From an uncultured Chloroflexia bacterium (lineage in GTDB: Bacteria; Chloroflexota; Limnocylindria; Limnocylindrales; CSP1-4), in contig CAVRKQ010000004.1 of assembly GCA_963722105.1 (NCBI GenBank), positions 196,335 to 260,334 on the forward strand: a DNA stretch of 64,000 nucleotides. Reading direction: 5' to 3'. Shown here one piece after another: positions 24,828-38,749 of this stretch. The notes under the pieces were generated by a model. It made no database searches. It saw only the letters and a program-made list of their open reading frames with translations, and was not told where the DNA came from. The position numbers were made by a program, and so were the translations under genes. Every line of letters starts with the position of its first letter. The first letter of the stretch is position 1.

Positions 24828-25819
24828 GGCTCTCTCCCTCGCGCGATGGTGGTTGCGGCGACGAACGGCGGTCCGCCGCCGGGGCTGTCCAGCAGCCCGA
24901 GGCGGACCTCCTCGCGAACCCGAGCGGCGGCCTCCTCGGCGCCCTCGAGGGCAGGATAGAGCGCCCAGAGGGTCGGGCCGGAGCCCGAGAGGCCGATCGG
25001 AGCGCCGAGGAGCCTGGTGAGGGAGCGGCGGAGGGCGCGCAGCCCCGGCAGAACGACGTCGGCGGCGTTTGCGAGGTCGTTGGCGACGGCCAGCACGCCG
25101 GCGCGCAGCACCAGGTCGGCGCTCCGCATCGGTGGGTGCCCGGGCCCGAGCTCGGCCGCGAGGTGCTCCGACGACAGGCGCGTCGAGCCGGCGCTTGACG
25201 GGGCTGCTGCCGGGTTGGTGTCGAATGCGGCGAAGGCCTCCTGCGTGGAGATCGGCGCCGCCGGTGTGACGAGCAGCACCCCCGGCGCCTCGCCGCGGAG
25301 CGTGCTCAGCGCCGTCACGCGCTCACCGCGGCCCTCGACGAGGGCCGGCCCGCCGGCGAGGAAGAACGGCACGTCCGAGCCCGTTGCCATCGCCGCTCGT
25401 CGCCGATCGTCCGGGGATGCCTCGGCGCCCCAGGCCTCGAAAGCGCCATCGATCGCGGCGGCGGCGTCGCTGCTCCCGCCGGCGAGGCCCGCGGCAATCG
25501 GGATTCGCTTCTCAAGGCGGGCCGCGAGCGGGAACGTCTCGGCGCCCCGGCCGATGACCTCCCGTGCCTCGGCGATCCCGCGCAGGACGGAGCCGAAGGC
25601 CTGCGGCCCGCCGATGGCGACCCCGTCGGCGCCGACGACGTGGAGGCTGTCCTCGCCACCGGCGGCGCGTGCGAGGCTGAGCCGGTCGGCGAGGCCCAGC
25701 GGGACCATCACGGAGTGGAGGGCGTGGAACCCGTCGGGCCGGATGCCGAGCACGGCCAGGGTGAGGTTGAGCTTCGCGGGCGCCAGGCGAACGACGGGCA
25801 TCAGCTCGCGGTCGGTCAT
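24824..25819 (-). CDS. ispE: 4-diphosphocytidyl-2-C-methyl-D-erythritol kinase
   Basis: APAKLNLTL, KRIPIAAGLAGGSSDAAA, GSDVPFF, NDL, LSGSGPT. Confidence 0.95.
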   Translation of the reverse strand: MTDRELMPVVRLAPAKLNLTLAVLGIRPDGFHALHSVMVPLGLADRLSLARAAGGEDSLHVVGADGVAIGGPQAFGSVLRGIAEAREVIGRGAETFPLAARLEKRIPIAAGLAGGSSDAAAAIDGAFEAWGAEASPDDRRRAAMATGSDVPFFLAGGPALVEGRGERVTALSTLRGEAPGVLLVTPAAPISTQEAFAAFDTNPAAAPSSAGSTRLSSEHLAAELGPGHPPMRSADLVLRAGVLAVANDLANAADVVLPGLRALRRSLTRLLGAPIGLSGSGPTLWALYPALEGAEEAAARVREEVRLGLLDSPGGGPPFVAATTIARGREP

Positions 25820-26721
25820 CGCGGGGCACCACGGCCCAGGGCGTCGTTGAGGCGAAGCCAGTCCTCGACGGACAGCGTCTGTGGCCGCCGGTCGCCGGCG
25901 ATCCCGACGGCGTCGAGCGCGACATCGACCCTGGCCTGCCCGACAGGCGGCCCCGTCACGCCGTCCTGGCCGGTGTGGAGCTGTCGCGCGAGCACGTTCC
26001 GGATCATCTTGCGGCGCTCCCGGAATCCAGTCTGGACCAGGCCCCAGAGCCAGGGCTCGCGCTCCACAGGCAGCGCGAGCGTGGCCCGCGGGGTGAGCAC
26101 GGCCACCGCGGACGAGACCTTCGGTGCGGGCTCGAACGCCTCCGGCGGGACGCGCAGCGGAACCTCGACCTCGGCGTGGTACTGGACGAACACCGAGAGG
26201 TAGCTCATCCGGCCGGTCGGCGCCGCGATCCGGTCCGCGACCTCCGCCTGGAGCATCAGGACCAGCCGCTCCGGGGACGGCGGACGCTCGAGCAGCCGGT
26301 GGAGGCTGGGGCTGGTGATGTGGTACGGCAGGTTCGCCACGACGCGGTAGGGCGCCGGGACGACATCCGGCAGGTCCTGGTCAAGCGCGTCGCCCTCGAT
26401 CAGGGTCAGGCGACCCTCGTCGATCTCGGTCGCGAAGCGCTGGCGGAGGTACGCGGCGAGCCCGGCATCGAGCTCGATCGCGGTGACCTCGGCGCCACCC
26501 TCGAGAAGCCCGCCGGTCAGGATCCCGAGCCCCGGCCCGATCTCGAGGACCCGCGTGCCCGGCCCGGCCTCCGCGAGGTCGAGGATCGCCTGGAGCACGT
26601 CCGGGTCGGCGAGGAAGTTCTGCGACCTGGCGTGGCGCGCACGCAGCCCCTCGCGCTTCAGCGTCCGGCGGACCTCGAGCGGGTCGAGTCGCGGGGGGCG
26701 GGGCGGGCGGTCGACGGTCAC
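25816..26721 (-). CDS. rsmA: 16S rRNA (A1518/A1519) dimethyltransferase
   Basis: SQNFL, VLEIGPGLGILT, VANLPYHITS, FEPAPKVSSAV, RRKMIRN. Confidence 0.96.
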   Translation of the reverse strand: MTVDRPPRPPRLDPLEVRRTLKREGLRARHARSQNFLADPDVLQAILDLAEAGPGTRVLEIGPGLGILTGGLLEGGAEVTAIELDAGLAAYLRQRFATEIDEGRLTLIEGDALDQDLPDVVPAPYRVVANLPYHITSPSLHRLLERPPSPERLVLMLQAEVADRIAAPTGRMSYLSVFVQYHAEVEVPLRVPPEAFEPAPKVSSAVAVLTPRATLALPVEREPWLWGLVQTGFRERRKMIRNVLARQLHTGQDGVTGPPVGQARVDVALDAVGIAGDRRPQTLSVEDWLRLNDALGRGAPR

Positions 26722-26731
26722 CGGGGTTCCG

Positions 26732-27790
26732 TCAGCGGGCGAGCGGCAGCGATGGCGTCGCCTCGAGGTCGAGGCCGGAGCGCTCGCCGGCGAGGAACCG
26801 CCGGGCTCCGGCAGCGCCGATCATCGCGCCGTTGTCCGTGCACAGGCCGGGCCGGGGCACGATCAGCGGGATGCCGAGCGCCTCGGCCTCGCCAGCCAGG
26901 CGCGATCGCAGGACCGAGTTTGCCGCGACGCCGCCCCCGAGCACGATCGAGCGCGCGTCGATCTCCCGCGCGGCCCGGATCGTCTTCGCGACGAGGACGT
27001 CGACCACGGCATCCTGGAAGCCCCAGGCGAGCTCGGCGGTGACGACGTGCGGCAGCGGCTCCTCGGGCTCGCGGAGGCCGGCGTCCGCGCGCGCGGCGTC
27101 GACGGTGCGCCGTGCCGCCGTCTTCAGCCCCGAGAACGAGAAGTCGTACGAATCGCCGAGCCACGCCCGCGGGAAGCGGGTGTCGTGGCGGACCGCACCC
27201 TCGGCCGCCTTCTGGATCTCCGGGCCGCCCGGGTACGGCAGGTCGAGCAGCCGGCCGACCTTGTCGAACGCCTCGCCGGCCGCGTCGTCGACCGTCTGGC
27301 CGAGCAGCCGGTACGTCAGGTGGTCGGTCATCTCGACGAGGAAGGTGTGCCCGCCGGAAACCACCAGCGCGACGAGCGGGAAGGCCGGCGCCTCGCCATC
27401 GGGCTGGCCTGGGTCGCGGAGCCACGCCGCATACACGTGACCTTCGAGGTGGTTCACGCCGATGAACGGCTTGTCGTGGACCCACGCGAGCGTCTTGGCC
27501 ACGTTGATCCCGACCAGGAGCGACCCGGCGAGGCCCGGCCCGCGGGTGACCGCGACCGCCCCGACATCGTCCCACGTCACGCCAGCGGTCGACCAGGCCT
27601 CGTCGAGCACGGGCAGGATCCAGCGCAGGTGCGCCCGGGCGGCGACCTCAGGCACGATCCCGCCCGCCGGCGCATGGAGCGCGACCTGGCTGGCAACGAC
27701 GTTCGCGAGGATCCGGGTGCCGCCCTCGACGAGCGCGACGCCCGTCTCGTCGCAGGAGGACTCGACCGCGAGCACGAGGGGCCCGCTCAT
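26732..27790 (-). CDS. tsaD: t6A synthesis protein TsaD
   Basis: AVESSCDET, GGIVPEVAARAH, NHLEGH, LVVSGGHT, DDAAGEAFDK, CTDNGAMI. Confidence 0.97.
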   Translation of the reverse strand: MSGPLVLAVESSCDETGVALVEGGTRILANVVASQVALHAPAGGIVPEVAARAHLRWILPVLDEAWSTAGVTWDDVGAVAVTRGPGLAGSLLVGINVAKTLAWVHDKPFIGVNHLEGHVYAAWLRDPGQPDGEAPAFPLVALVVSGGHTFLVEMTDHLTYRLLGQTVDDAAGEAFDKVGRLLDLPYPGGPEIQKAAEGAVRHDTRFPRAWLGDSYDFSFSGLKTAARRTVDAARADAGLREPEEPLPHVVTAELAWGFQDAVVDVLVAKTIRAAREIDARSIVLGGGVAANSVLRSRLAGEAEALGIPLIVPRPGLCTDNGAMIGAAGARRFLAGERSGLDLEATPSLPLAR

Positions 27791-27797
27791 GGCGCCG

Positions 27798-28373
27798 TCA
27801 TCCGCGGTATGAGCCGTCCGGGGGCGCGTCGAACGGGGTCGCGTCGTCCAAGGGCCGCTCGTCCAGCTCGGCGCGGAGGCGCGCCATCCGCTCGACCATC
27901 CCCAGCGATGCGAGCGCCTCCGTGGTCATGATCAGCGCGTCCTCGCCGTTGTCGGAGTAGTAACGCGGCCGGATCCCGACCGGCCGGAAGCCGTGCTTCT
28001 CGTAGAGCTTGCGCGCCGGCAGGTTCGAGAGCCGGACCTCGAGCGTCGCCTCGCGGGCCTGACGGACGACGGCCAGGTCGAGAAGCGCCAGGAGCAGCCG
28101 CTCCCCCACCCCGCGGCGGCGCCAGCGCGGGTCCACGGCGAACGTCGTCACGTGGGCCTCGTCGACCATGACCCACAGCCCCGCGAACCCGAGGACATCC
28201 TCCCCGAGGCGGGCGACCACATAGCTCGCGAGCCGGTTCGTGCGGATCTCGTTCCTGTACGCGTCGTCGGGCCACGGGACGGCGAAGCTGGCGCGCTCGA
28301 TCGCATGGACCGCCGGGAGGTCGTCGAGCGTCATCGGCTCGATCCGCAGCGCTACCGGGGGTCGCGCGACCAC
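27798..28373 (-). CDS. rimI: Ribosomal protein alanine N-acetyltransferase
   Basis: IERASFAVPW, DEAHVTTFAV, LEVRLSN, RPRYYSDNGEDALIM. Confidence 0.93.
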   Translation of the reverse strand: MVARPPVALRIEPMTLDDLPAVHAIERASFAVPWPDDAYRNEIRTNRLASYVVARLGEDVLGFAGLWVMVDEAHVTTFAVDPRWRRRGVGERLLLALLDLAVVRQAREATLEVRLSNLPARKLYEKHGFRPVGIRPRYYSDNGEDALIMTTEALASLGMVERMARLRAELDERPLDDATPFDAPPDGSYRG

Positions 28374-29114
28374 GCGACACCTCCACCAGGCTGCTCTGCC
28401 GGGCCGTCGAGCGGCATTCCTCGCGGCGGGCTGGCGTAGCGCGGCACGAGCCGCTCTGGATCGTCGAACTCGCCCCGGGCAAGGCGTGCCGCACCGAGGC
28501 GCAGCAGCGCTGCCCCGAGGCCCGCGACGGCGCGGCGTCCGAGCTCCAGCGCGGGCTCCGGGGCACGACCGTCGAGGTCGACGGCAAGCGTCCGCGTGCC
28601 GGCAGCGATGCCGGACTCGGCACCTGCGTCGGGGGCGGCAGCGTCGGGGTCGGCAGCGCCCCCTGCACCCGAATCAGCTTCTTCGGCCCGAACCACGCGC
28701 GGCTCGGCGCCGGGCGTCACCAGCGACTCGATCGCGAGGTCCGGATGGCAGCCAAAGCGCGTCCGCGCCGTCGACGGCGACGAGCAGGGCCTCCGCGCTG
28801 GAGATGCCCACGATCGGTCGCTCGAGCTCGTGGGCGAGGGTCTTCGCGGTGGCCAGCCCGACGCGGAGACCGGTGAACGCGCCCGGGCCGGCGCCGGCGA
28901 CGATCCCCGCGAGGTCGGCCACGCGCAGCCCGGCCCGCTCCGTCAACCGGACGATCGCCGGCAGCAGCTCCTGCGAGTGGCGGTAGCGGCCCTCGAACGC
29001 CTCTTGGTCGAGGAGCTCGCCGTCGGTCGAGCCGGCCGCAACGACGATCGTCGCAGTCGACGTGTCGATCGCGAGCAGCCAGGGTCGCGGCTCCGGGGCG
29101 TCCGATCCGGTCAC
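28352..29114 (-). CDS. tsaB: t6A synthesis protein TsaB (frameshift near 28730)
   Basis: LLAIDTST, HSQELLPAI, GPGAFTGLRVGLATAK; C-terminal LVPRYASPPRG in a second frame. Confidence 0.9.
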
Positions 29115-29588
29115 GCCGCGGCCGCCGGTTCGATGTATCGCCCGTACCCCGCCCCCATCGCCTCGAGCGAGATCCGCCGTATTCCATCGGTCCCAGCGAT
29201 CCTGACGTCGAGCCGGGCGGGCGGCAGGGCCGCGCCGAGTCGATCCGGCCATTCGATGAGCACGACCCCGGTCGACTGTCGATCGTCGAGCAGGCCGCCG
29301 TCGAGGGCCTCCTCGGCCGTGGCGAGGCGGTAGAGGTCGATGTGGAAGAGCGGCAGCCGCCCCGCGTACTCGCCCATCAGGACGAACGTCGGCGAGCTGA
29401 TCGTGTCCGCGATCCCCAGCCCGAGCCCGAACCCCTTCGCGAACACGGTCTTGCCCGCCCCGAGGTCGCCCCAGAGGCACAGCGATGTCGCCGGGCTGGG
29501 CGACGGACGCGAGCCGCGCCGCGAGCTGCCGGGTCGTCTCGGGGCTCTCGCTGGCCAGCTCAACGGTCGAGCCGGGAACGGTTGCCAC
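29111..29588 (-). CDS. tsaE: t6A synthesis ATPase TsaE (frameshift near 29490)
   Basis: GDLGAGKTVFAKG, SSPTFVL, HIDLYRL, LIEWPD. Confidence 0.93.
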
Positions 29589-29592
29589 GCGG

Positions 29593-30633
29593 TCAGGCAA
29601 AGCGCTCGAGGTCGCCGATCGGGATCGCGACCGGCGGTCGGCCGCCGAAACGGACGAACGCCGCCTCCAGCGTGACCCCGGCCGGGAACCGGCGGGGACC
29701 GGCGAGCCCCGCCCACGTGCCCTCGGCGCCGGCCAGCGGGCCGGACCGGACGCGGACGAGGTCGCGCACGGCAGGCGGGAGCGAAACGCTGGCGTCGTCG
29801 ATGACGAGGGCCGGCGGGTTGGCGACGATCGCCACCATGCTGCCCTCCGCGGCCTCGAACAGGGCCATGACCGACGAGGCGATCGGCCGGCGCGCCGCGC
29901 CGTCCAGCACCAGGATCCCGAACGGCGGCAGGCCGTGGACGCCAGCCCGACCACGCCGCTCCGAGGCGAGGAAGTCACGCTGCTCCTTGATGCCGAGCGC
30001 CGAGACGATGACGCCCCGGATCCCGACCGCCCTGGCGCGGGTCAGTGCCTCGGCGTCCATGCGCGCCCCGGCGACGACGATCGCCCCGGCGGCGCCGACG
30101 TCGACATGCTGCGCCCGGAGCTCGCCGTCGGGGCCCGTTGCGACCTGGAGACGGCCCCACGTGGGCCCTGCGAGCACGGATCGGCCCACGACCGCGCTCG
30201 ACAACGAGCGGATCGTCACCCCGGTCCCCGGCTGAACCTCGTGCACGACCCCGCCGAACGGCGCCTCGAGCGTGTCGGGCCGGTCCCCGCCGGCGATCCG
30301 CCAGCGGTTGCCGCTTCGGAAGAGCAGCTCGCCGCCCGGCTGGACCTCGCCCTCGCGTGCGTCGTGGCCCGGGGTGCCGTTCCAGCGATCGCCGGGGACC
30401 GCTGTCCCGTCCTCCCCGATCACGCCGGCCACCACGATCGTCCGCGGATCGCGGTGATGCTCGAGGATCGGCTGGCCCCGGCCCACGGCCTCGCCGGCCT
30501 TCACCAGCGGGCGGTCGCCTGGGTGGAGCCGGAAGAACGCGTCGATCGGCGACGTGACGAGGGGTCGCTGGGCGACCAGCTCGAGGCCGGCCGGCTCTGC
30601 CGTCGCGGTGGCCGCGCCGTGCTCCATCGTCAT
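29593..30633 (-). CDS. Hypothetical protein with barrel-sandwich-hybrid-like half motifs and C-terminal KOW-like motif
   Basis: LVKAGEAVGRGQPI and LEAPFGGVVHEV; GAIVVAG...ARAVGIRGVIV; VRVRSGPLAGAEG; ATGA-coupled to the upstream gene. Confidence 0.7.
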   Translation of the reverse strand: MTMEHGAATATAEPAGLELVAQRPLVTSPIDAFFRLHPGDRPLVKAGEAVGRGQPILEHHRDPRTIVVAGVIGEDGTAVPGDRWNGTPGHDAREGEVQPGGELLFRSGNRWRIAGGDRPDTLEAPFGGVVHEVQPGTGVTIRSLSSAVVGRSVLAGPTWGRLQVATGPDGELRAQHVDVGAAGAIVVAGARMDAEALTRARAVGIRGVIVSALGIKEQRDFLASERRGRAGVHGLPPFGILVLDGAARRPIASSVMALFEAAEGSMVAIVANPPALVIDDASVSLPPAVRDLVRVRSGPLAGAEGTWAGLAGPRRFPAGVTLEAAFVRFGGRPPVAIPIGDLERFA

Positions 30634-32261
30634 CGCTCGTCTCCCGGCCACGCGAGCTCGCCCCACGCCGCCAGGGCCGCCCGCCGCCGGTCGCGGCGCT
30701 CCGGGAGCCGCAGCGGCACGTCGCGGAGGTCGATGGCGAGGCCGCCGACGCCGCCGGAGACGGGCACGGCAACGCGCCGGGCGCGGTGTCCCACGCGCAC
30801 CGCCTCGCGGAACTCGAGGGTCGCGAGCGCCCGGTCACCGGGCGGGAGGTCGACGAACGACACCTCGCCGCGCGGCGAGATCGTGGCGGCCGTGGCGATC
30901 GCCATCGAGGGTCAGCCGGCCTGCCCGGGAGGCGCCGCGGCGGCCGCCGGGCACGCTGCCGACGACGAGCAGGCTGCCGATCGGGGCGAGCAGGTCGTCG
31001 GCCAGATCCGTGAGCAGGTCGCGCCGCTCATCCGGGTCGTCGATGGTCCCGATCGGGCCGAGGAGGCGCGCATGGTCGATCGCAAGCTGGGTGGCACCGG
31101 GACGGCGGATCGTATCGGCGATCGCGAGCGCCACGGCCCGTGGGGGCGCGACGGCGAACGCGCCGCCGGAGATGATCGTGACATCCGGGCTGGCCATGAG
31201 GCCGATGTCCTGGCTCCGTGCCGCAAGCCGCGTCAGCGCCGCCCGGGCGGCCGCCAGCCGGAGCCGCGCTCCCTCCCCGGAGGCGTCGGCCCAGGGCTGG
31301 GCCTGCAGGTCGAGGAGGCGGTCGCCCATCCGGTGCCGGTCCAGGCTCCCGGTCGTCCAGGCAAGGACGGCATCGACCGCCGCGTCGTCGACGTGCATGG
31401 GGACCAGTGCGGCGCTCGCCGTTCGGACAGCAACGGCCGCCGGACCCTGGTCGGCGATGCCGGGCGTGGCCATGGCCCGGAGCCCTCCGTCGATCCCGAT
31501 GTCGAGCAGCTCGAGGCGTCGGTCGAGGGCATCGGCGAGGGACAGGAGCGCGCGGACGGCCGTCTGGCGCGCGTCGCCCGTGCTGGGCAGCAGGCTCTCG
31601 AGGATCTCGCGGAGCGGCTCGTCCGGCCCGCTCCGGACGCCCAGGGGCGGGCCCTCGACGATCCGCGTCTGTGTCCCGTCGAGCGGGCGGCCGGCGCCCT
31701 CGGCCCAGGCATTTCGAGCGCCGATCGGACCGGCGAGGACGACGCGCAGCTCGGGGCGCCGGCGCGTCGACGGCGCCGACCAGTCCCGCCAGGTCGTCGA
31801 GCCAGCCGCGCTCGTCGGGCCCCGGCGGGTCCCCGGCGCCGACCAGGACCGCGATCACGTCCGGCCGGAGCGCGAGCTCGGTCATCTCGCGCGGGTCGTG
31901 ACTCTCGGGCGATGCCGCGCGGACCCGCCACGGCGTGCGTTCCGCAACGGCCTCCAGCAGCGCGACCGCGCGCCGCGAGGCTCCGAGGACCGCGAGCGTT
32001 GGCGGTGGCTCGGAGGTCGTCTCGAGGCGTGGCAGGTCCACGACGCTCTCGACGGACACCTCGAGGTCGCGAGCGAGATCCGCGTCGGCGGCGGCAAGGC
32101 GTCCGGCGAGCACCGTGGCGAGCGAGGCAGGCGGGGTGCCGGCGGGAGCGGCGATCGAGCCGAGGAGCCGCCAGCGTGATGCCGGGATGCCCGAGGAGTG
32201 CAACGGAGGTGGTGGCCGCACCCGCGTCGATGGCGAGGAGCGCCCGTGGAACGGTCGTCAC
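30630..32261 (-). CDS. Degenerate glutamate mutase L (GlmL/MutL)-like ASKHA-fold protein (several frameshifts)
   Basis: N-terminal LLAIDAGAATTSVAL; internal LLDIGIDGG; IISGGAFA; C-terminal GGVGGLAIDLRDVPLRLP..R...LAAW, as recalled for GlmL-like proteins; assembled from ORFs 31233-32261, 31028-32221, 30835-31473 and 30630-30905. Confidence 0.65.
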
Positions 32262-32267
32262 CGGGTC

Positions 32268-32273
32268 ATGCTA
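32268..32273 (-). promoter_or_regulatory. Putative -10 box (TAGCAT), leaderless start of the GlmL-like-tsa operon
   Basis: TAGCAT, 6 nt spacer, then GTG 32261. Confidence 0.55.
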
Positions 32274-32295
32274 GCCGTCGGGCGCCGCCGACGGC

Positions 32296-32601
32296 TCAGG
32301 CGTCCCAGCCGGTCTCGTCCGACAGGTCTTCCAGCCGCTCGATCAGCTGCTCGATCCCATCCTCGTCCGCGAGGAGCGCGGAGGCGCTCGGGAGCTCGCC
32401 ACCGAAGAGGCCGTGCAGCACCGGATCGAAGAACAGCATCGCGTTCGCGCCGAGCGGCCGGTACGGGCGCGAGGCCTGCAGGAAGTGGACCGCCGGTGCC
32501 GTGAGGCCGCGCAGCTGGATCTCGCGCGCGACCTCCTCGACCAGCTCGTCGCGCTGCTCCTCGCCGAGGCCGCCCTGCTCGCTGCGGCTCGCCTCGCTCA
32601 C
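32296..32601 (-). CDS. Small helical hypothetical protein (~101 aa)
   Basis: MSEASRSEQ...RDELVEEVAREIQLRGLTAPAVHFLQASRPYRPLGANAMLFFDP; GTGA overlap with the alr stop; merged onto alr in the ORF track by a frameshift. Confidence 0.7.
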   Translation of the reverse strand: MSEASRSEQGGLGEEQRDELVEEVAREIQLRGLTAPAVHFLQASRPYRPLGANAMLFFDPVLHGLFGGELPSASALLADEDGIEQLIERLEDLSDETGWDA

Positions 32602-33888
32602 GGTCGCATCGACCTCCTGGGGTTCGCCGAGTGCCCGGCAAGGGTCCGCAGCTCCCGGGGAACGGACGCCGCATGGTACACCCGGGGCAGGCGCGCGGAG
32701 AGGTCCGTGACGACCTCCCAGGAGTTCGTGGCGCGGGCCGCCGCGACCTCCGTGGCGGTGATCCGATCCGACCCCTGGACGCCGATGAGCACGAACTCGT
32801 CCGCGGCGCTCGACCGGGGGCCCGGGCACGTCCGTGACGTCGGCCATGACGGCATCCATGGCCACGTTGCCGACGAGCGGCACCCGCCGGCCGCGAACCA
32901 GCGCTTCGGCGCGATTCGAGAGGGACCGGGGCCAGCCGTCGCCGTAGCCGAGCGGCAGCGTCGCGATCCGGCTGGGTCGCGACGTGGCGAACGTCGGGCC
33001 GTAGCTGATCCCCCAGCCTGCCGGCAGGTCCGCGACGCGAACCGGGCGCGCCCGAAGCGACAGCACCGGCCGAAGGCCCGGCCGCGGCCTCGACGATGCG
33101 CCGGCGAGGCACCCCCAGGGCCCTCCAGAAGCTCCTCCGGCACGATCCCGTAGGCAGCGAGGCCCGGGCGGACCGCGTCGTACGAGGCGACGCCATCGAC
33201 CAGCAGGCCGCCGCTCGCGGCGAGATGCCGCGGGGCATCCGGATCCCGGCCGCCGGCGAGGGCGGCCGCGGCCTCCTCGAACCGCGCGAGCTGGGCCGCC
33301 GTGCGGGCTGCGTCCTCGGCGGCCTGGAGGTGTGTCCAGAGGCCCGCGAGCCGCGCCGACCCGTGAGCCCTCGATCGACCGGGCCGCCGCGACGACGTCG
33401 TCCACGGCGAAGCCGCCACGCCCGAGGCCCGTCTCGACCTCGAGCTGCAGGTCGAGCAAGGCGGAATCCGGCTCCGTGGCCGCGCCGGCGAGGGCCGCCG
33501 CCAGCAGCTCGTCGTCGCCGGCAGTGATCGCGATCCGCTCCCGCCGAGCCTCCCCTGCCAGCGCTGGCGGGATCGGGTACAGGACGAGGATCGGCGCCCC
33601 GATCCCGGCTGACCGCAGGTCGACCGCCTCGTCGAACGTCGCGACGCAGAACCCGTCGGCCCCGGCCGCGGCGAGGGCTCGAGCGACCGGCAGGACGCCA
33701 TGGCCGTACGCGTCGGCCTTCACCACCGGGTGGACCGGCACGCCATGACCCGCGATCGATCGAAGAACGGCGAGGTTCCCAACGAGTGCGTCGAGGTCGA
33801 TCTCGGCCCAGGCGGTGCGTGGCAGCGGCGGCAGGCCCGCCGCCGAAAGGCGCTCCTCGATCGAGGGTGCGGCGGCGCTGCCGGTCAG
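32598..33888 (-). CDS. alr: Alanine racemase (frameshifts near 33365 and 32815; apparent CTG start)
   Basis: TAWAEIDLDAL, VVKADAYGHG (PLP Lys), GLGRGG, VRPGLAAYG, LPLGYGDG, VGNVAMD, ARLPRVY. Confidence 0.93.
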
Positions 33889-34940
33889 GCCTTTGCTCCA
33901 TCGCCGTCACGAACCGTGAAGCCGACACGCTTGCCCGGCTTGTTCCGCTCGGCGAGGCTCGCCAGGCGCTTGCGAACGATCGGGATGCTGTCGGGCAGGT
34001 CGGAGGCGATCAGTCCCGCGTCCCCGATGCGGTCGCGGATGGACTCGCCCGCCGCACCGTGGAGGTAGACGCCGAGGCGCGCCGCGGGTCCGGGCTTGAG
34101 CCCCTGGGCCAGCAGTGCCCCGATGATCCCCGCCAGCACGTCGCCCGTGCCCCCGCTCGCGAGCGCCGGGTTCTCGAACGGCGCCACAGTCACCGTGCCA
34201 TCCGGCTCCGCGATCACCGTCTTCGCGCCCTTGAGGACCACGACCTGGTTCCATGCCGCGGCGGCCGCCGTTGCGGCCGTGCGTCGAGACTCGTCCTGAT
34301 CGAGGTCGCCGTCGCTGCCCTCCTCGACGCCTGCGCCGGCTCGGAGTCGCGCGAACTCGCCGACGTGGGGGGTCAGGACGCACGGCCGAACCGTCCCGCT
34401 CCACCACTCGCCCATCGTCGCCATCGCCCGGAGCGCCTCGGCATCGAGGACCAGCGGCGCGGGCTCCGGTTCGTGCTCCTGTGGGGCCAGGAGCAGCCGG
34501 ACGAGCTCGGTCGTCGCGAGGCCGGGGCGGAGGCCCGGCCCGACCACGATCGCGTCATTCTCGTGGTCCAGGATTCGCGCGATCGACGGCTCGGGATCGA
34601 CCTCCTCGACGTCGTCCTCGGGCAGCGCCATCGTGGTCGCCTCGACGACCTTCCCGGCGAACAGCGGCTGGAGCGACTCCGGGATCGCGAGGGTCACGAG
34701 CCCCGCGCCTGCGCGGCCCGCGGCCCGGCAGACGAGCAGGGCCGCGCCCGCGTAGTCGAGTGACCCGGCGATGACCAGGACCTTCCCGAAGGTGCCCTTG
34801 TGGCCTCGGACGGGCCGCTCCGGGAGCAGCGCCGCCGCCGCCGCGTCGTCCATCGTCACGACCGCGGTGGCCTCCGACGCCTCGCCCGACGACGGCGTCG
34901 CTTCCTGCCGGCGGAATCCGAGCGGCCGCTTGTCAGGCAT
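33885..34940 (-). CDS. nnrD: ADP-dependent NAD(P)H-hydrate dehydratase (stand-alone, no epimerase domain)
   Basis: GHKGTFG, AGSLDYAGAA, GPGL, VLDAEAL, LTPHVGEFARL, VVLKG, LASGGTGDVLAG. Confidence 0.93.
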   Translation of the reverse strand: MPDKRPLGFRRQEATPSSGEASEATAVVTMDDAAAAALLPERPVRGHKGTFGKVLVIAGSLDYAGAALLVCRAAGRAGAGLVTLAIPESLQPLFAGKVVEATTMALPEDDVEEVDPEPSIARILDHENDAIVVGPGLRPGLATTELVRLLLAPQEHEPEPAPLVLDAEALRAMATMGEWWSGTVRPCVLTPHVGEFARLRAGAGVEEGSDGDLDQDESRRTAATAAAAAWNQVVVLKGAKTVIAEPDGTVTVAPFENPALASGGTGDVLAGIIGALLAQGLKPGPAARLGVYLHGAAGESIRDRIGDAGLIASDLPDSIPIVRKRLASLAERNKPGKRVGFTVRDGDGAKA

Positions 34941-35517
34941 CGGACGGCTCGGGCTCGGGCGTCGCGGCCGGCGTTGGCGCCCCAGCGGCCGCCGTGGGCG
35001 TCGTGATCCCCCGGAGCCGCTCCATGCGGGCGAGGATCCGGCGCTCGCGGTCGTCGAGCCGCGCCTCGATGTCGGGCGGGAAGAGGAACCGGCCCCCAGC
35101 GGTCCGGATCCCGAACGCGATCGCCACCGCGTACTCGGCCTCGTGGCTGATCGACACCGCGATCCGGCCCATGCCGAGCTGCTCGGCCCGGGCCGCGGCG
35201 CGGCGATGGAGCCGGACGTTCGGCTGGCCGGTCGGCAGCCGCTCGATCTCGATCTCGGTCCAGCCGATGCCGCGGACCCCGAGGCCGAGCACCTTGCTCA
35301 CGGCCTCCTTCGCGGCCCACCGACCGGCGAACGTCTCGGGGCGGTCGCGGACGTAGCGATCCTCTGCCTCGGTGAGGACGCGTCGGGCGAATCGCCGCCC
35401 GAACTTCGCAAGGGTGTCCTTGATGCGCCCGACCTTGATGATGTCGATGCCCAGCTCGGTCGTCCCGGGGGGCGGTGAGAGCGGCGAGAGGGGCGCGATG
35501 CCCGCCGAATCATCCAT
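34933..35517 (-). CDS. acpS: Holo-[acyl-carrier-protein] synthase
   Basis: LGIDII, FAGRWAAKEAVSKVLG, VSISHE. Confidence 0.94.
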   Translation of the reverse strand: MDDSAGIAPLSPLSPPPGTTELGIDIIKVGRIKDTLAKFGRRFARRVLTEAEDRYVRDRPETFAGRWAAKEAVSKVLGLGVRGIGWTEIEIERLPTGQPNVRLHRRAAARAEQLGMGRIAVSISHEAEYAVAIAFGIRTAGGRFLFPPDIEARLDDRERRILARMERLRGITTPTAAAGAPTPAATPEPEPSDA

Positions 35518-35530
35518 TCGGCGGGAAACG

Positions 35531-37364
<1,834 letters not shown>

Positions 37365-37394
37365 GTTGTTCGTGGATCTCCCGTGATCGGCCGG

Positions 37395-38749
37395 TCAGTG
37401 TAGTCGTTGCTCCGCGAGCGCCGACAGACCGTCGGCGAGCTCGAGGACGACCTCGGCGTCCTCACCCTCGATCATCACGCGCAGCGACGGCTCCGTTCCG
37501 GACGGCCGCACCAGGACCCGCCCGCCCGTTCCGAGGCGCGCTTCGGCATCGGCGATCGCCCGCCGGAGCTCCGGGTCGCCCTCCCATTGCTCCTTGTGTC
37601 GCACCCGAACCGCCCGCTGCTCCTGGGGCAGGAGCGGGATCCGCTCGGCGAGCTCCGCGAGGGTCTTCCCGCTCGTCGTGACGACCCGGAGCAGCTCCAG
37701 CGCCGTGACGAGTCCGTCGCCCGAGGTCGTGTGCTCGCGAACGATCACGTGGCCGCTCTTCTCGCCGCCGAGGCCCGCCCCGGAGACCTGCATGCCCTCC
37801 AGGATGTACTTGTCGCCGACCGGCGTCCGCACGACCGTCCCGCCGGCGCCCTCGATGGCCGCCTGGAGGCCGCCGTTCGAGAGCACGGAGACCACGAGCG
37901 TCCCGATCGCGGGGTCGGCGCCGTCCGCGCCGGGCCGGGACAGGCGCTCCAGCGCAAGGACGCCGAGGACCCGGTCGCCGTCGACGACCTGGCCCGCGGC
38001 ATCCACGGCCACGAGGCGATCCGCATCGCCATCGAGCGCGAACCCGAGGTCCGCACCCGCCGCCACGACCCGCGCCGCGAGCGCGGCAGGCGCGGTCGCG
38101 CCGCAATCGAGGTTGATGTTCAGCCCGTCGGGGTGCGTCGTGGATCACCTCGACCGGTCGCGCCCGTGGCGCCGAGGATCCGCGCCGGCGACCGAGCTGG
38201 CCGAGCCGTTCGCGCAGTCCACGACGATCCGGAGGCGCGGACGCATCGATGCGGCGGGCCGAACCGTCGCGGTGGGCGACGTAGCGGTCGATCCGGTCCC
38301 GCGCGTCGACGACGATGCCGAGGTGTCCGGCGGGACCCCGGCCAGCTCGTCGGTGCGCCAGATCAGCTGCTCGAGCTCGTCCTCGACGGTGTCGTCGAGC
38401 TTCAGGCCGTCCGCGTCGAGGACCTTGAGGCCGTTGTCCTCGGCCGGGTTGTGCGAGGCCGACACCATGATCCCCGCTGTCACGTCGCCCTCGCCGGCGA
38501 GAAACGCCAGGGCCGGCGTGGGGACGACGCCCGACGATGTGGACGTCGACGCCCAGGCTCGTCGCGCCGGCGGCGATCGCCGCCACGAACATGTCTCCGG
38601 AGCGGCGCGTGTCCTGTCCAACGACGATCGGCGCCGCCCGGCCCGACCAGCCGTTGCGCAGTGGCGCGCCCAAGGGCGAAGGCCGTCGTCGGCTTGAGGT
38701 CGACGTTCGCGACCCCTCGGATGCCGTCGGTGCCGAACAGGCGTGGCAA
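37395..38749 (-). CDS. glmM: Phosphoglucosamine mutase (several frameshifts; TTG start)
   Basis: LFGTDGIRG, GQDTRRSG, VSASHNP, DGDADR, GGEKSGH, VRPSGTEP. Confidence 0.94.

Follow-up and report, generated by a model that had tools for sequence, protein, structure and literature searches.

The genomic DNA of an uncultured Chloroflexota bacterium of the class Limnocylindria was analysed over a stretch of 64,000 nucleotides (nt), referred to here as the window (G000:C4:196335-260334, G+C about 75%). It comes from a metagenome-assembled genome of 3.0 Mb in 12 contigs with an estimated completeness of 77%, whose close protein matches carry the labels Candidatus Limnocylindria or Limnocylindrales. 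Between alr and tsaE, three genes are found on the minus strand: a small open reading frame (ORF), here called S, a GlmL-like gene, A, and its partner gene, B. On balance, we lean towards the view that S-A-B is the reduced, soluble core of an uncharacterised Chloroflexota gene cluster, that its linkage to the genes for N6-threonylcarbamoyladenosine (t6A) synthesis is specific to one lineage, and that it does not serve in the reactivation of B12 mutases.

Gene A is not recognised by the curated family models. The fragments of A, the stitched A and the intact orthologue P0004 (82% identical to A; 542 amino acids (aa), as for P0002) give no Pfam or NCBIfam match, and P0004 has no match to PF13941 at E<=1. 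The PF13941 hidden Markov model, run over 41 Limnocylindria genomes, did not find gene A and picked up only weak phosphate-2-like stretches in other proteins. An A-family profile searched with hmmsearch against the PDB sequences gave chance matches only. The gathering cut-off of PF13941 is 27 bits, and those of the NCBIfam models NF040745 (accessory GlmL, an equivalog) and TIGR01319 (glmL_fam) are 475 and 204 bits. Neither NCBIfam model matches stitched A or P0004, and an Anaerolineae-type homologue scores 98.5 bits with NF040745 and 71.8 bits with TIGR01319, both far below the cut-off. An exhaustive phmmer search yielded 374 clusters at 50% identity, and PF13941 is touched by four of 31 diverse full-length members of the family. 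P0274 passes its cut-off with 43.5 bits; this protein is encoded on a contig of 2 kb and is immediately followed by a partner-like gene. P0260 and P0271 match PF13941 weakly, at 23 bits, and are found in the context acpS-nnr-alr-A-B(-tsaE-tsaB-rimI).

The A homologue of a Roseiflexus-type genome (G324) matches PF13941 end to end with 191 bits. Proteins 54-86% identical to this homologue carry the NCBI name 'glutamate mutase L' (Roseiflexus, Roseiflexaceae and Kouleothrix records). With hhalign, the Limnocylindria A profile aligns to the G324 protein with 96.4% probability over 232 columns, and the match spans the C-terminal domain including a D-x-R-x-x-P-L-x-L-P...R...W motif. A preliminary description of this DNA, made from the sequence alone, had called A GlmL-like and had proposed a profile search as a check; a remote similarity emerges from this family-profile alignment and from the distant family members.

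The AlphaFold2 model of A, based on 41 orthologues, has a predicted local distance difference test score (pLDDT) of 90.2 and a predicted template modelling score of 0.91. Towards the C-terminus, the model shows a domain rich in beta strands (about 425-510), and it ends in a helix. In a Foldseek comparison with the PDB, the model retrieved only proteins of the acetate and sugar kinase/Hsc70/actin (ASKHA) fold (E 1e-7 to 1e-5, probability about 1), namely DnaK/Hsp70, glycerol kinase, PilM, FtsA, acetate kinase, HgdC-type activators and RACo. By this model and its matches, A has the ASKHA fold. It appears to belong, strongly diverged, to the GlmL/MutL branch (PF13941), as a remote relative and not as a GlmL equivalog. 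The motifs DAGAATTS and DIGIDGG, pointed out and considered degenerate in the preliminary description, are present in A. Among the 41 orthologues, residues D12, G14, T17, G255, G365 and G366 show no or almost no variation. D12, G14 and T17 lie in D-A-G-A-A-T-T, the phosphate-2 motif reads D-I-G followed by a 5-residue insertion, and G365-G366 form the GG adenosine motif. The nucleotide motifs are altered and not destroyed in this lineage, where they are largely kept. As regards the pseudo-ATPase suggested in the preliminary description, their loss is seen only in a fused version of A from small genomes. The overall identity of A ranges from 44 to 100% across 80 Limnocylindria loci, in which the three genes, their order and the A/B overlap recur, so that the trio is real and no product of chance.

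A comparison over the phylum places the trio within a larger gene cluster. The A profile matches 166 of 301 Chloroflexota genomes and the B profile 91 of them. Outside the class, B directly follows A in about 30 genomes from several families, among them G083, G288, G146, G295, G055, G042 and G205, and the B homologue next to the PF13941 protein of G083 is supported by hhalign at 97.5%. A 264-aa protein 3' of the Roseiflexus-type MutL is not a B homologue. The gene order is S-DUF6754-206 aa-287 aa-A-B-tsaE in the deep Limnocylindria family f3, S-like-DUF6754-223 aa-1023 aa-215 aa-A in G324, and DUF6754-203 aa-872 aa-304 aa-A-B in G083, which is probably a member of Anaerolineae. The proteins of about 205 aa are homologous polytopic membrane proteins; the 287-aa protein of f3 and the 304-aa protein of G083 show no similarity to each other. 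In the large proteins of the cluster, (D/E)xPDWL repeats occur in large numbers; after them come two membrane spans with a domain of about 300 aa between them, and in G083 a zinc ribbon lies at the N-terminus. No relatives of the large repeat protein were found in the PDB or NCBIfam, and a Pfam 'BRK' match looks spurious. In these large membrane proteins (L149:10123-13194 and L143:9587-12205), up to about 25 tandem (D/E)LPDWLRD repeats are present.

Outside family f1, relatives of S lie on the same strand as A and 3-6 kb upstream of it, for example in G084, G055, G324, G238 and family f3. S shows no similarity to the tested cluster proteins of G083. DUF6754 is absent from families f1, f2, f70 and f71. 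From gene content and order, the trio of the window appears to be a reduced form of a phylum-wide cluster. A full-text literature search returned no paper on PF13941 in Chloroflexota or on DUF6754.

The coupling of A to B, noted in the preliminary description for the window, extends well beyond it: in about 60 of 66 loci, the stop of A and the start of B share 4 or 8 nt. In the sister family f2, whose genomes are only about 1.1 Mb in size, a single ORF of 556-590 aa combines a shortened A with the C-terminal half of B. It lies directly between alr and tsaE, and the same open frame is present in G025 and G026. In the fused protein, lobe I is mostly missing and the phosphate-1 motif is lost ('IREDLDRSF' versus 'IDAGAATTS'). 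In G025 (about 1.2 Mb), the fusion is 556 aa long (L017:6527-8197) and no small ORF is seen. Because A and B overlap in nearly all lineages and are fused in small-genome relatives, B would be an obligate partner of A.

The AlphaFold2 model of B (pLDDT 86.7) consists of an N-terminal beta region, a central alpha/beta domain and a putative C-terminal KOW/SH3-like domain. Foldseek gave weak matches for the C-terminus (NusG 2xhc, E 1.2e-3; ribosomal eS4, E about 0.02-0.1) and for the central domain (ZNRF3 PA domain, MccF N-domain and Bacillus stearothermophilus pyruvate kinase, 2e28). No family match was obtained for the window B itself. Among 51 orthologues, seven match KOW (PF00467; best E 0.0078) and three match Biotin_lipoyl (best E 0.068), a weak signal for an N-terminal barrel-sandwich hybrid; NQRA_N and RnfC_N are each found in one orthologue (E 0.18-0.3), and an RraA-like match occurs once. 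The earlier 'hybrid/KOW' description of B is plausible, if weakly supported. S has no Pfam or NCBIfam match. Among the three genes, conservation is highest for S, at 65-92% identity over 80 loci. Its C-terminal 'E-E-x-x-W-D-A' was considered as a mimic of the PDWL repeat and discarded, as the Roseiflexus-type S homologue ends differently. The PADLOC anti-phage models match neither S, A and B nor the G083 cluster proteins.

The features of the locus are listed in the table below; the sequence features named in the preliminary description are all confirmed. The start of S overlaps the stop of alr in GTGA, and an AGGAGG is located 11 nt 5' of the S start. The spacer between S and A is 34 nt long and holds the TAGCAT hexamer. 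The stop of A overlaps the start of B in ATGA, and the tsaE start codon begins 4 nt past the B stop, both as previously described; the downstream genes tsaB, rimI, tsaD and rsmA follow with intergenic gaps of at most about 10 nt. A 9-bp GC hairpin just after the S stop (32274-32295; GCCGTCGG...CCGACGGC) was considered as a terminator and rejected, with a z-score of -1.1 against shuffled sequences and no conservation in relatives. In some lineages (L045-L057), about 500 nt of additional sequence are present between alr and S. In the close relative G017, tsaB and rimI form one open frame of 420 aa (L020:9183-10445), which may be a natural fusion or may stem from an assembly error; the window has two ORFs here, overlapping but separate.

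Features of the alr-S-A-B-tsaE locus (positions within the window)
Feature	Coordinates	Strand	Remarks
alr	32598..33786	minus	three frame breaks; stop overlaps S start
S	32296..32601	minus	101 aa, small acidic helical protein, GTG start
TAGCAT, -10-like hexamer	32268..32273	minus	6 nt before GTG of A
A	30630..32261	minus	about 543 aa, GTG start, TGA 30632-30630, broken by +1 insertions
B	29593..30633	minus	346 aa, intact frame
tsaE	29111..29588	minus	GTG start; PF02367 E 5e-29; frameshift near 29500
tsaB	28352..29114	minus	PF00814 match; frameshift near 28700
rimI	27798..28373	minus	
tsaD	26732..27790	minus	

The preliminary description had also given A a -10 element of its own for a leaderless transcript, and this element proved to be conserved. 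TAGCAT, TAGGAT or TACGAT is found at exactly -12..-7 of the A start codon in 62 of 67 loci, with varying bases in the flanking spacer. With A and T at about 12% each, a TANNNT hexamer would turn up by chance at about 0.2% of positions. The geometry fits a -10 element for leaderless mRNA, which makes the box a candidate promoter. A scan for consensus sigma-70 promoters and terminators gave nothing, as expected at 75% G+C. In sister Limnocylindria lineages with a spacer of 35-200 nt between B and tsaE (L045-L099), a second conserved box, ...ttcggCTAC[GC]CTcg..., has its end 6-8 nt ahead of the ATG of tsaE. Together, the A box and this tsaE box suggest that leaderless transcripts are common in the class. 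In the window clade the tsaE box is absent, and tsaE abuts B or overlaps it by 8 nt, leaving no room for a separate promoter in this genus. Given the box and spacer in the sister lineages and the abutment here, the tsaE operon fusion is most likely genuine here and is confined to one clade.

This arrangement bears on the proposal of the preliminary description that A and B, possibly with S, are tied to t6A synthesis by TsaBDE or to other RNA modification, for example as an ASKHA accessory or scaffold for TsaB and TsaD. Both TsaB and TsaD are ASKHA proteins themselves. The three-gene module does lie between alr and tsaE, and the order glmS-acpS-nnr-alr-S-A-B-tsaE-tsaB-rimI-tsaD-rsmA recurs in 80 of 80 loci from other Limnocylindria species as far as the contigs reach; adjacency to tsaE holds in the deep branches as well. 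Within this genus the junction is tight, with a 4-nt gap or an 8-nt overlap and no box of its own for tsaE. Outside the class, however, A-B is separated from tsaE by 30 kb to several Mb in all 28 Chloroflexota genomes compared, every one of which possesses tsaE; linkage beyond one lineage, as would suit an accessory of t6A synthesis, was not found among them. An independent promoter before tsaE had been named beforehand as a finding that would speak against the tie, and the conserved TAC[GC]CT box of the sister lineages, though of those lineages only, is a candidate for one. Furthermore, the same gene string carries unrelated housekeeping genes (glmS, acpS, nnr, alr, rsmA), and elsewhere the partners of A-B are membrane-protein genes and not genes for RNA modification. 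The functional tie is thereby weakened to an unlikely explanation, and the t6A neighbourhood of S-A-B is better regarded as a lineage-specific operon arrangement than as a sign of shared function.

It is still less probable that A acts as a canonical GlmL-type chaperone or reactivase, whose client, an adenosylcobalamin enzyme such as an acyl-CoA mutase, would be encoded at another locus. A shares homology with PF13941, and the founding member of that family, GlmL/MutL, is described as a chaperone for the reactivation of glutamate mutase (PMC4682846); 'Glutamate mutase' is also listed among the non-polymerising actin-fold families (PMC5597319). In addition, acyl-CoA mutases (PF01642) are encoded in 41 of 41 relatives and B12-binding domains in 40 of 41, all of them unlinked to the trio. 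Yet glutamate mutase E (PF06368) is found in none of the 41 genomes, the own genome included, nor in the window, in agreement, as far as glutamate mutase goes, with the earlier proposal of a repurposing away from B12 chemistry. An OAM_dimer search, negative in all 41, had no positive control and carries no information here. A strict co-occurrence with a B12 mutase, which the preliminary description had held to be decisive against its view, is not seen for acyl-CoA mutase: PF01642 is missing from 31 of the 166 A-positive Chloroflexota genomes, many of them closed, and 99 genomes have PF01642 and lack A. Beyond the window, the own genome encodes two acyl-CoA mutases and a separate small B12-binding subunit (G000:C4:53976-55523; G000:C6:96154-105259); the genes for the mutases are found either on another contig, C6, or at a distance of about 170 kb on C4. 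Acyl-CoA mutases are served by MeaB-type G-protein chaperones (PMC10356863), and the NCBIfam GlmL score of the Anaerolineae-type homologue amounts to 98 bits where 475 are required. We consider it very improbable that A is simply a true pseudogene, with genuine insertions in a decaying module. A full reading of A needs three frame changes, which alignment to three relatives places as single-base insertions near 32177, 31770 and 30871, all outside long homopolymers, a point in favour of a pseudogene. Against decay, tblastn with intact congener proteins shows frame breaks at equal density in the neighbouring genes, about 10 per 11.5 kb (window 25800-37400) over glmS, alr (three), tsaE, tsaB and A (three). 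The broken segments are 73-92% identical to relatives with no build-up of stops in the correct frame, and twenty genomes of the same genus have a single open A frame of 480-590 aa. Since glmS, alr, tsaE and tsaB are broken in the same way and the relatives are intact, the frameshifts of A are most likely assembly errors. A completeness of 77% with 12 contigs is typical of an indel-rich long-read assembly, and the indels may also account for the low completeness.

Our favoured reading, that S-A-B is a reduced core, can be outlined as follows. S, A and B would be the soluble remnant of a widespread Chloroflexota gene cluster, in which S has probably stayed near A-B through several rearrangements. 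DUF6754, the membrane protein of about 205 aa and the zinc-ribbon repeat protein (the last in other classes) would have been lost from the window family. In this genus, A may be transcribed from its own leaderless-type promoter (TAGCAT), and transcription most likely continues through B into tsaE-tsaB-rimI-tsaD. A and B would form a complex, in which the ASKHA protein could act as a nucleotide-driven switch or scaffold for a client, ancestrally at the membrane. A more specific picture is tentative. S-A-B may be the soluble core of a Chloroflexota-wide membrane-associated machine built around a GlmL-family ASKHA protein, serving the envelope, division or assembly and unrelated to B12 repair. 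Its full form would include DUF6754, polytopic membrane proteins and a zinc-ribbon protein with up to about 25 cytoplasmic (D/E)xPDWL repeats, and Limnocylindria would have reduced it to three genes, or to one fused protein in genomes of 1 Mb, now integrated in the alr-tsaE housekeeping operon.

Several points weigh against these views. The global TM-scores of the Foldseek matches of A are low (0.22-0.30), and we know of no GlmL structure with which the A model could be compared. A itself matches no curated model, so that its placement in the GlmL/MutL family derives from transitive and profile evidence. The A-B complex is deduced from gene coupling and fusion alone. The window family has lost every membrane partner, so the role in a membrane machine may not apply here, and the tsaE adjacency spans a whole class, which is more than an incidental proximity. 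For this one genome, it is conceivable that the frameshifts are genuine.

The A-B module is probably important to the cell, since it is kept, fused and truncated, even in streamlined genomes of about 1.1 Mb. Its role, once found, would give a function to a module that over half of the sampled Chloroflexota genomes possess, and a misleading annotation could be put right. The pipeline name 'glutamate mutase L' on Chloroflexia PF13941 proteins appears misleading for a branch without a glutamate mutase link in the 41 Limnocylindria genomes checked. The acyl-CoA mutase counts are observations of no strict co-occurrence, and the branch of A would be independent of these enzymes, with its own partner protein and set of membrane proteins. 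The -10 boxes located 6-8 nt before start codons provide direct comparative evidence for leaderless transcription in an uncultured class.

A comparison of A with GlmL/MutL (PF13941; TIGR01319, NF040745) shows the same ASKHA fold, in the predicted model, and the same elements in identical order: the D-x-G-x-x-T loop, the second D-x-G loop and the GG adenosine motif. In contrast to GlmL/MutL, A has an extra C-terminal beta domain with the D-x-R-x-x-P-L-x-L-P...R...W motif, a seemingly obligate partner of about 350 aa together with a small companion protein, and elsewhere a membrane-protein context; it matches none of the models, and no glutamate mutase genes are present in its genome or in 40 relatives. 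The full Chloroflexota cluster (DUF6754 = PF20539; Roseiflexus-type genome and G083) shares homologous S, A and B, with the A-B (or S...A) order and orientation in common, while the window family is without DUF6754, the membrane proteins and the repeat protein and has its trio embedded in the alr-tsaE string. Finally, in the two-subunit diol dehydratase reactivase DdrA/DdrB and in scaffold systems such as PilM-PilN and FtsA, an ASKHA protein likewise has a partner dedicated to it. The structural search with A ranks PilM, FtsA and DnaK near the top, and DdrA is outside the top 50; there is no sequence relationship to DdrB or PilN. By functional analogy with these systems, A may likewise be an ASKHA protein that works through its own dedicated partner, B.

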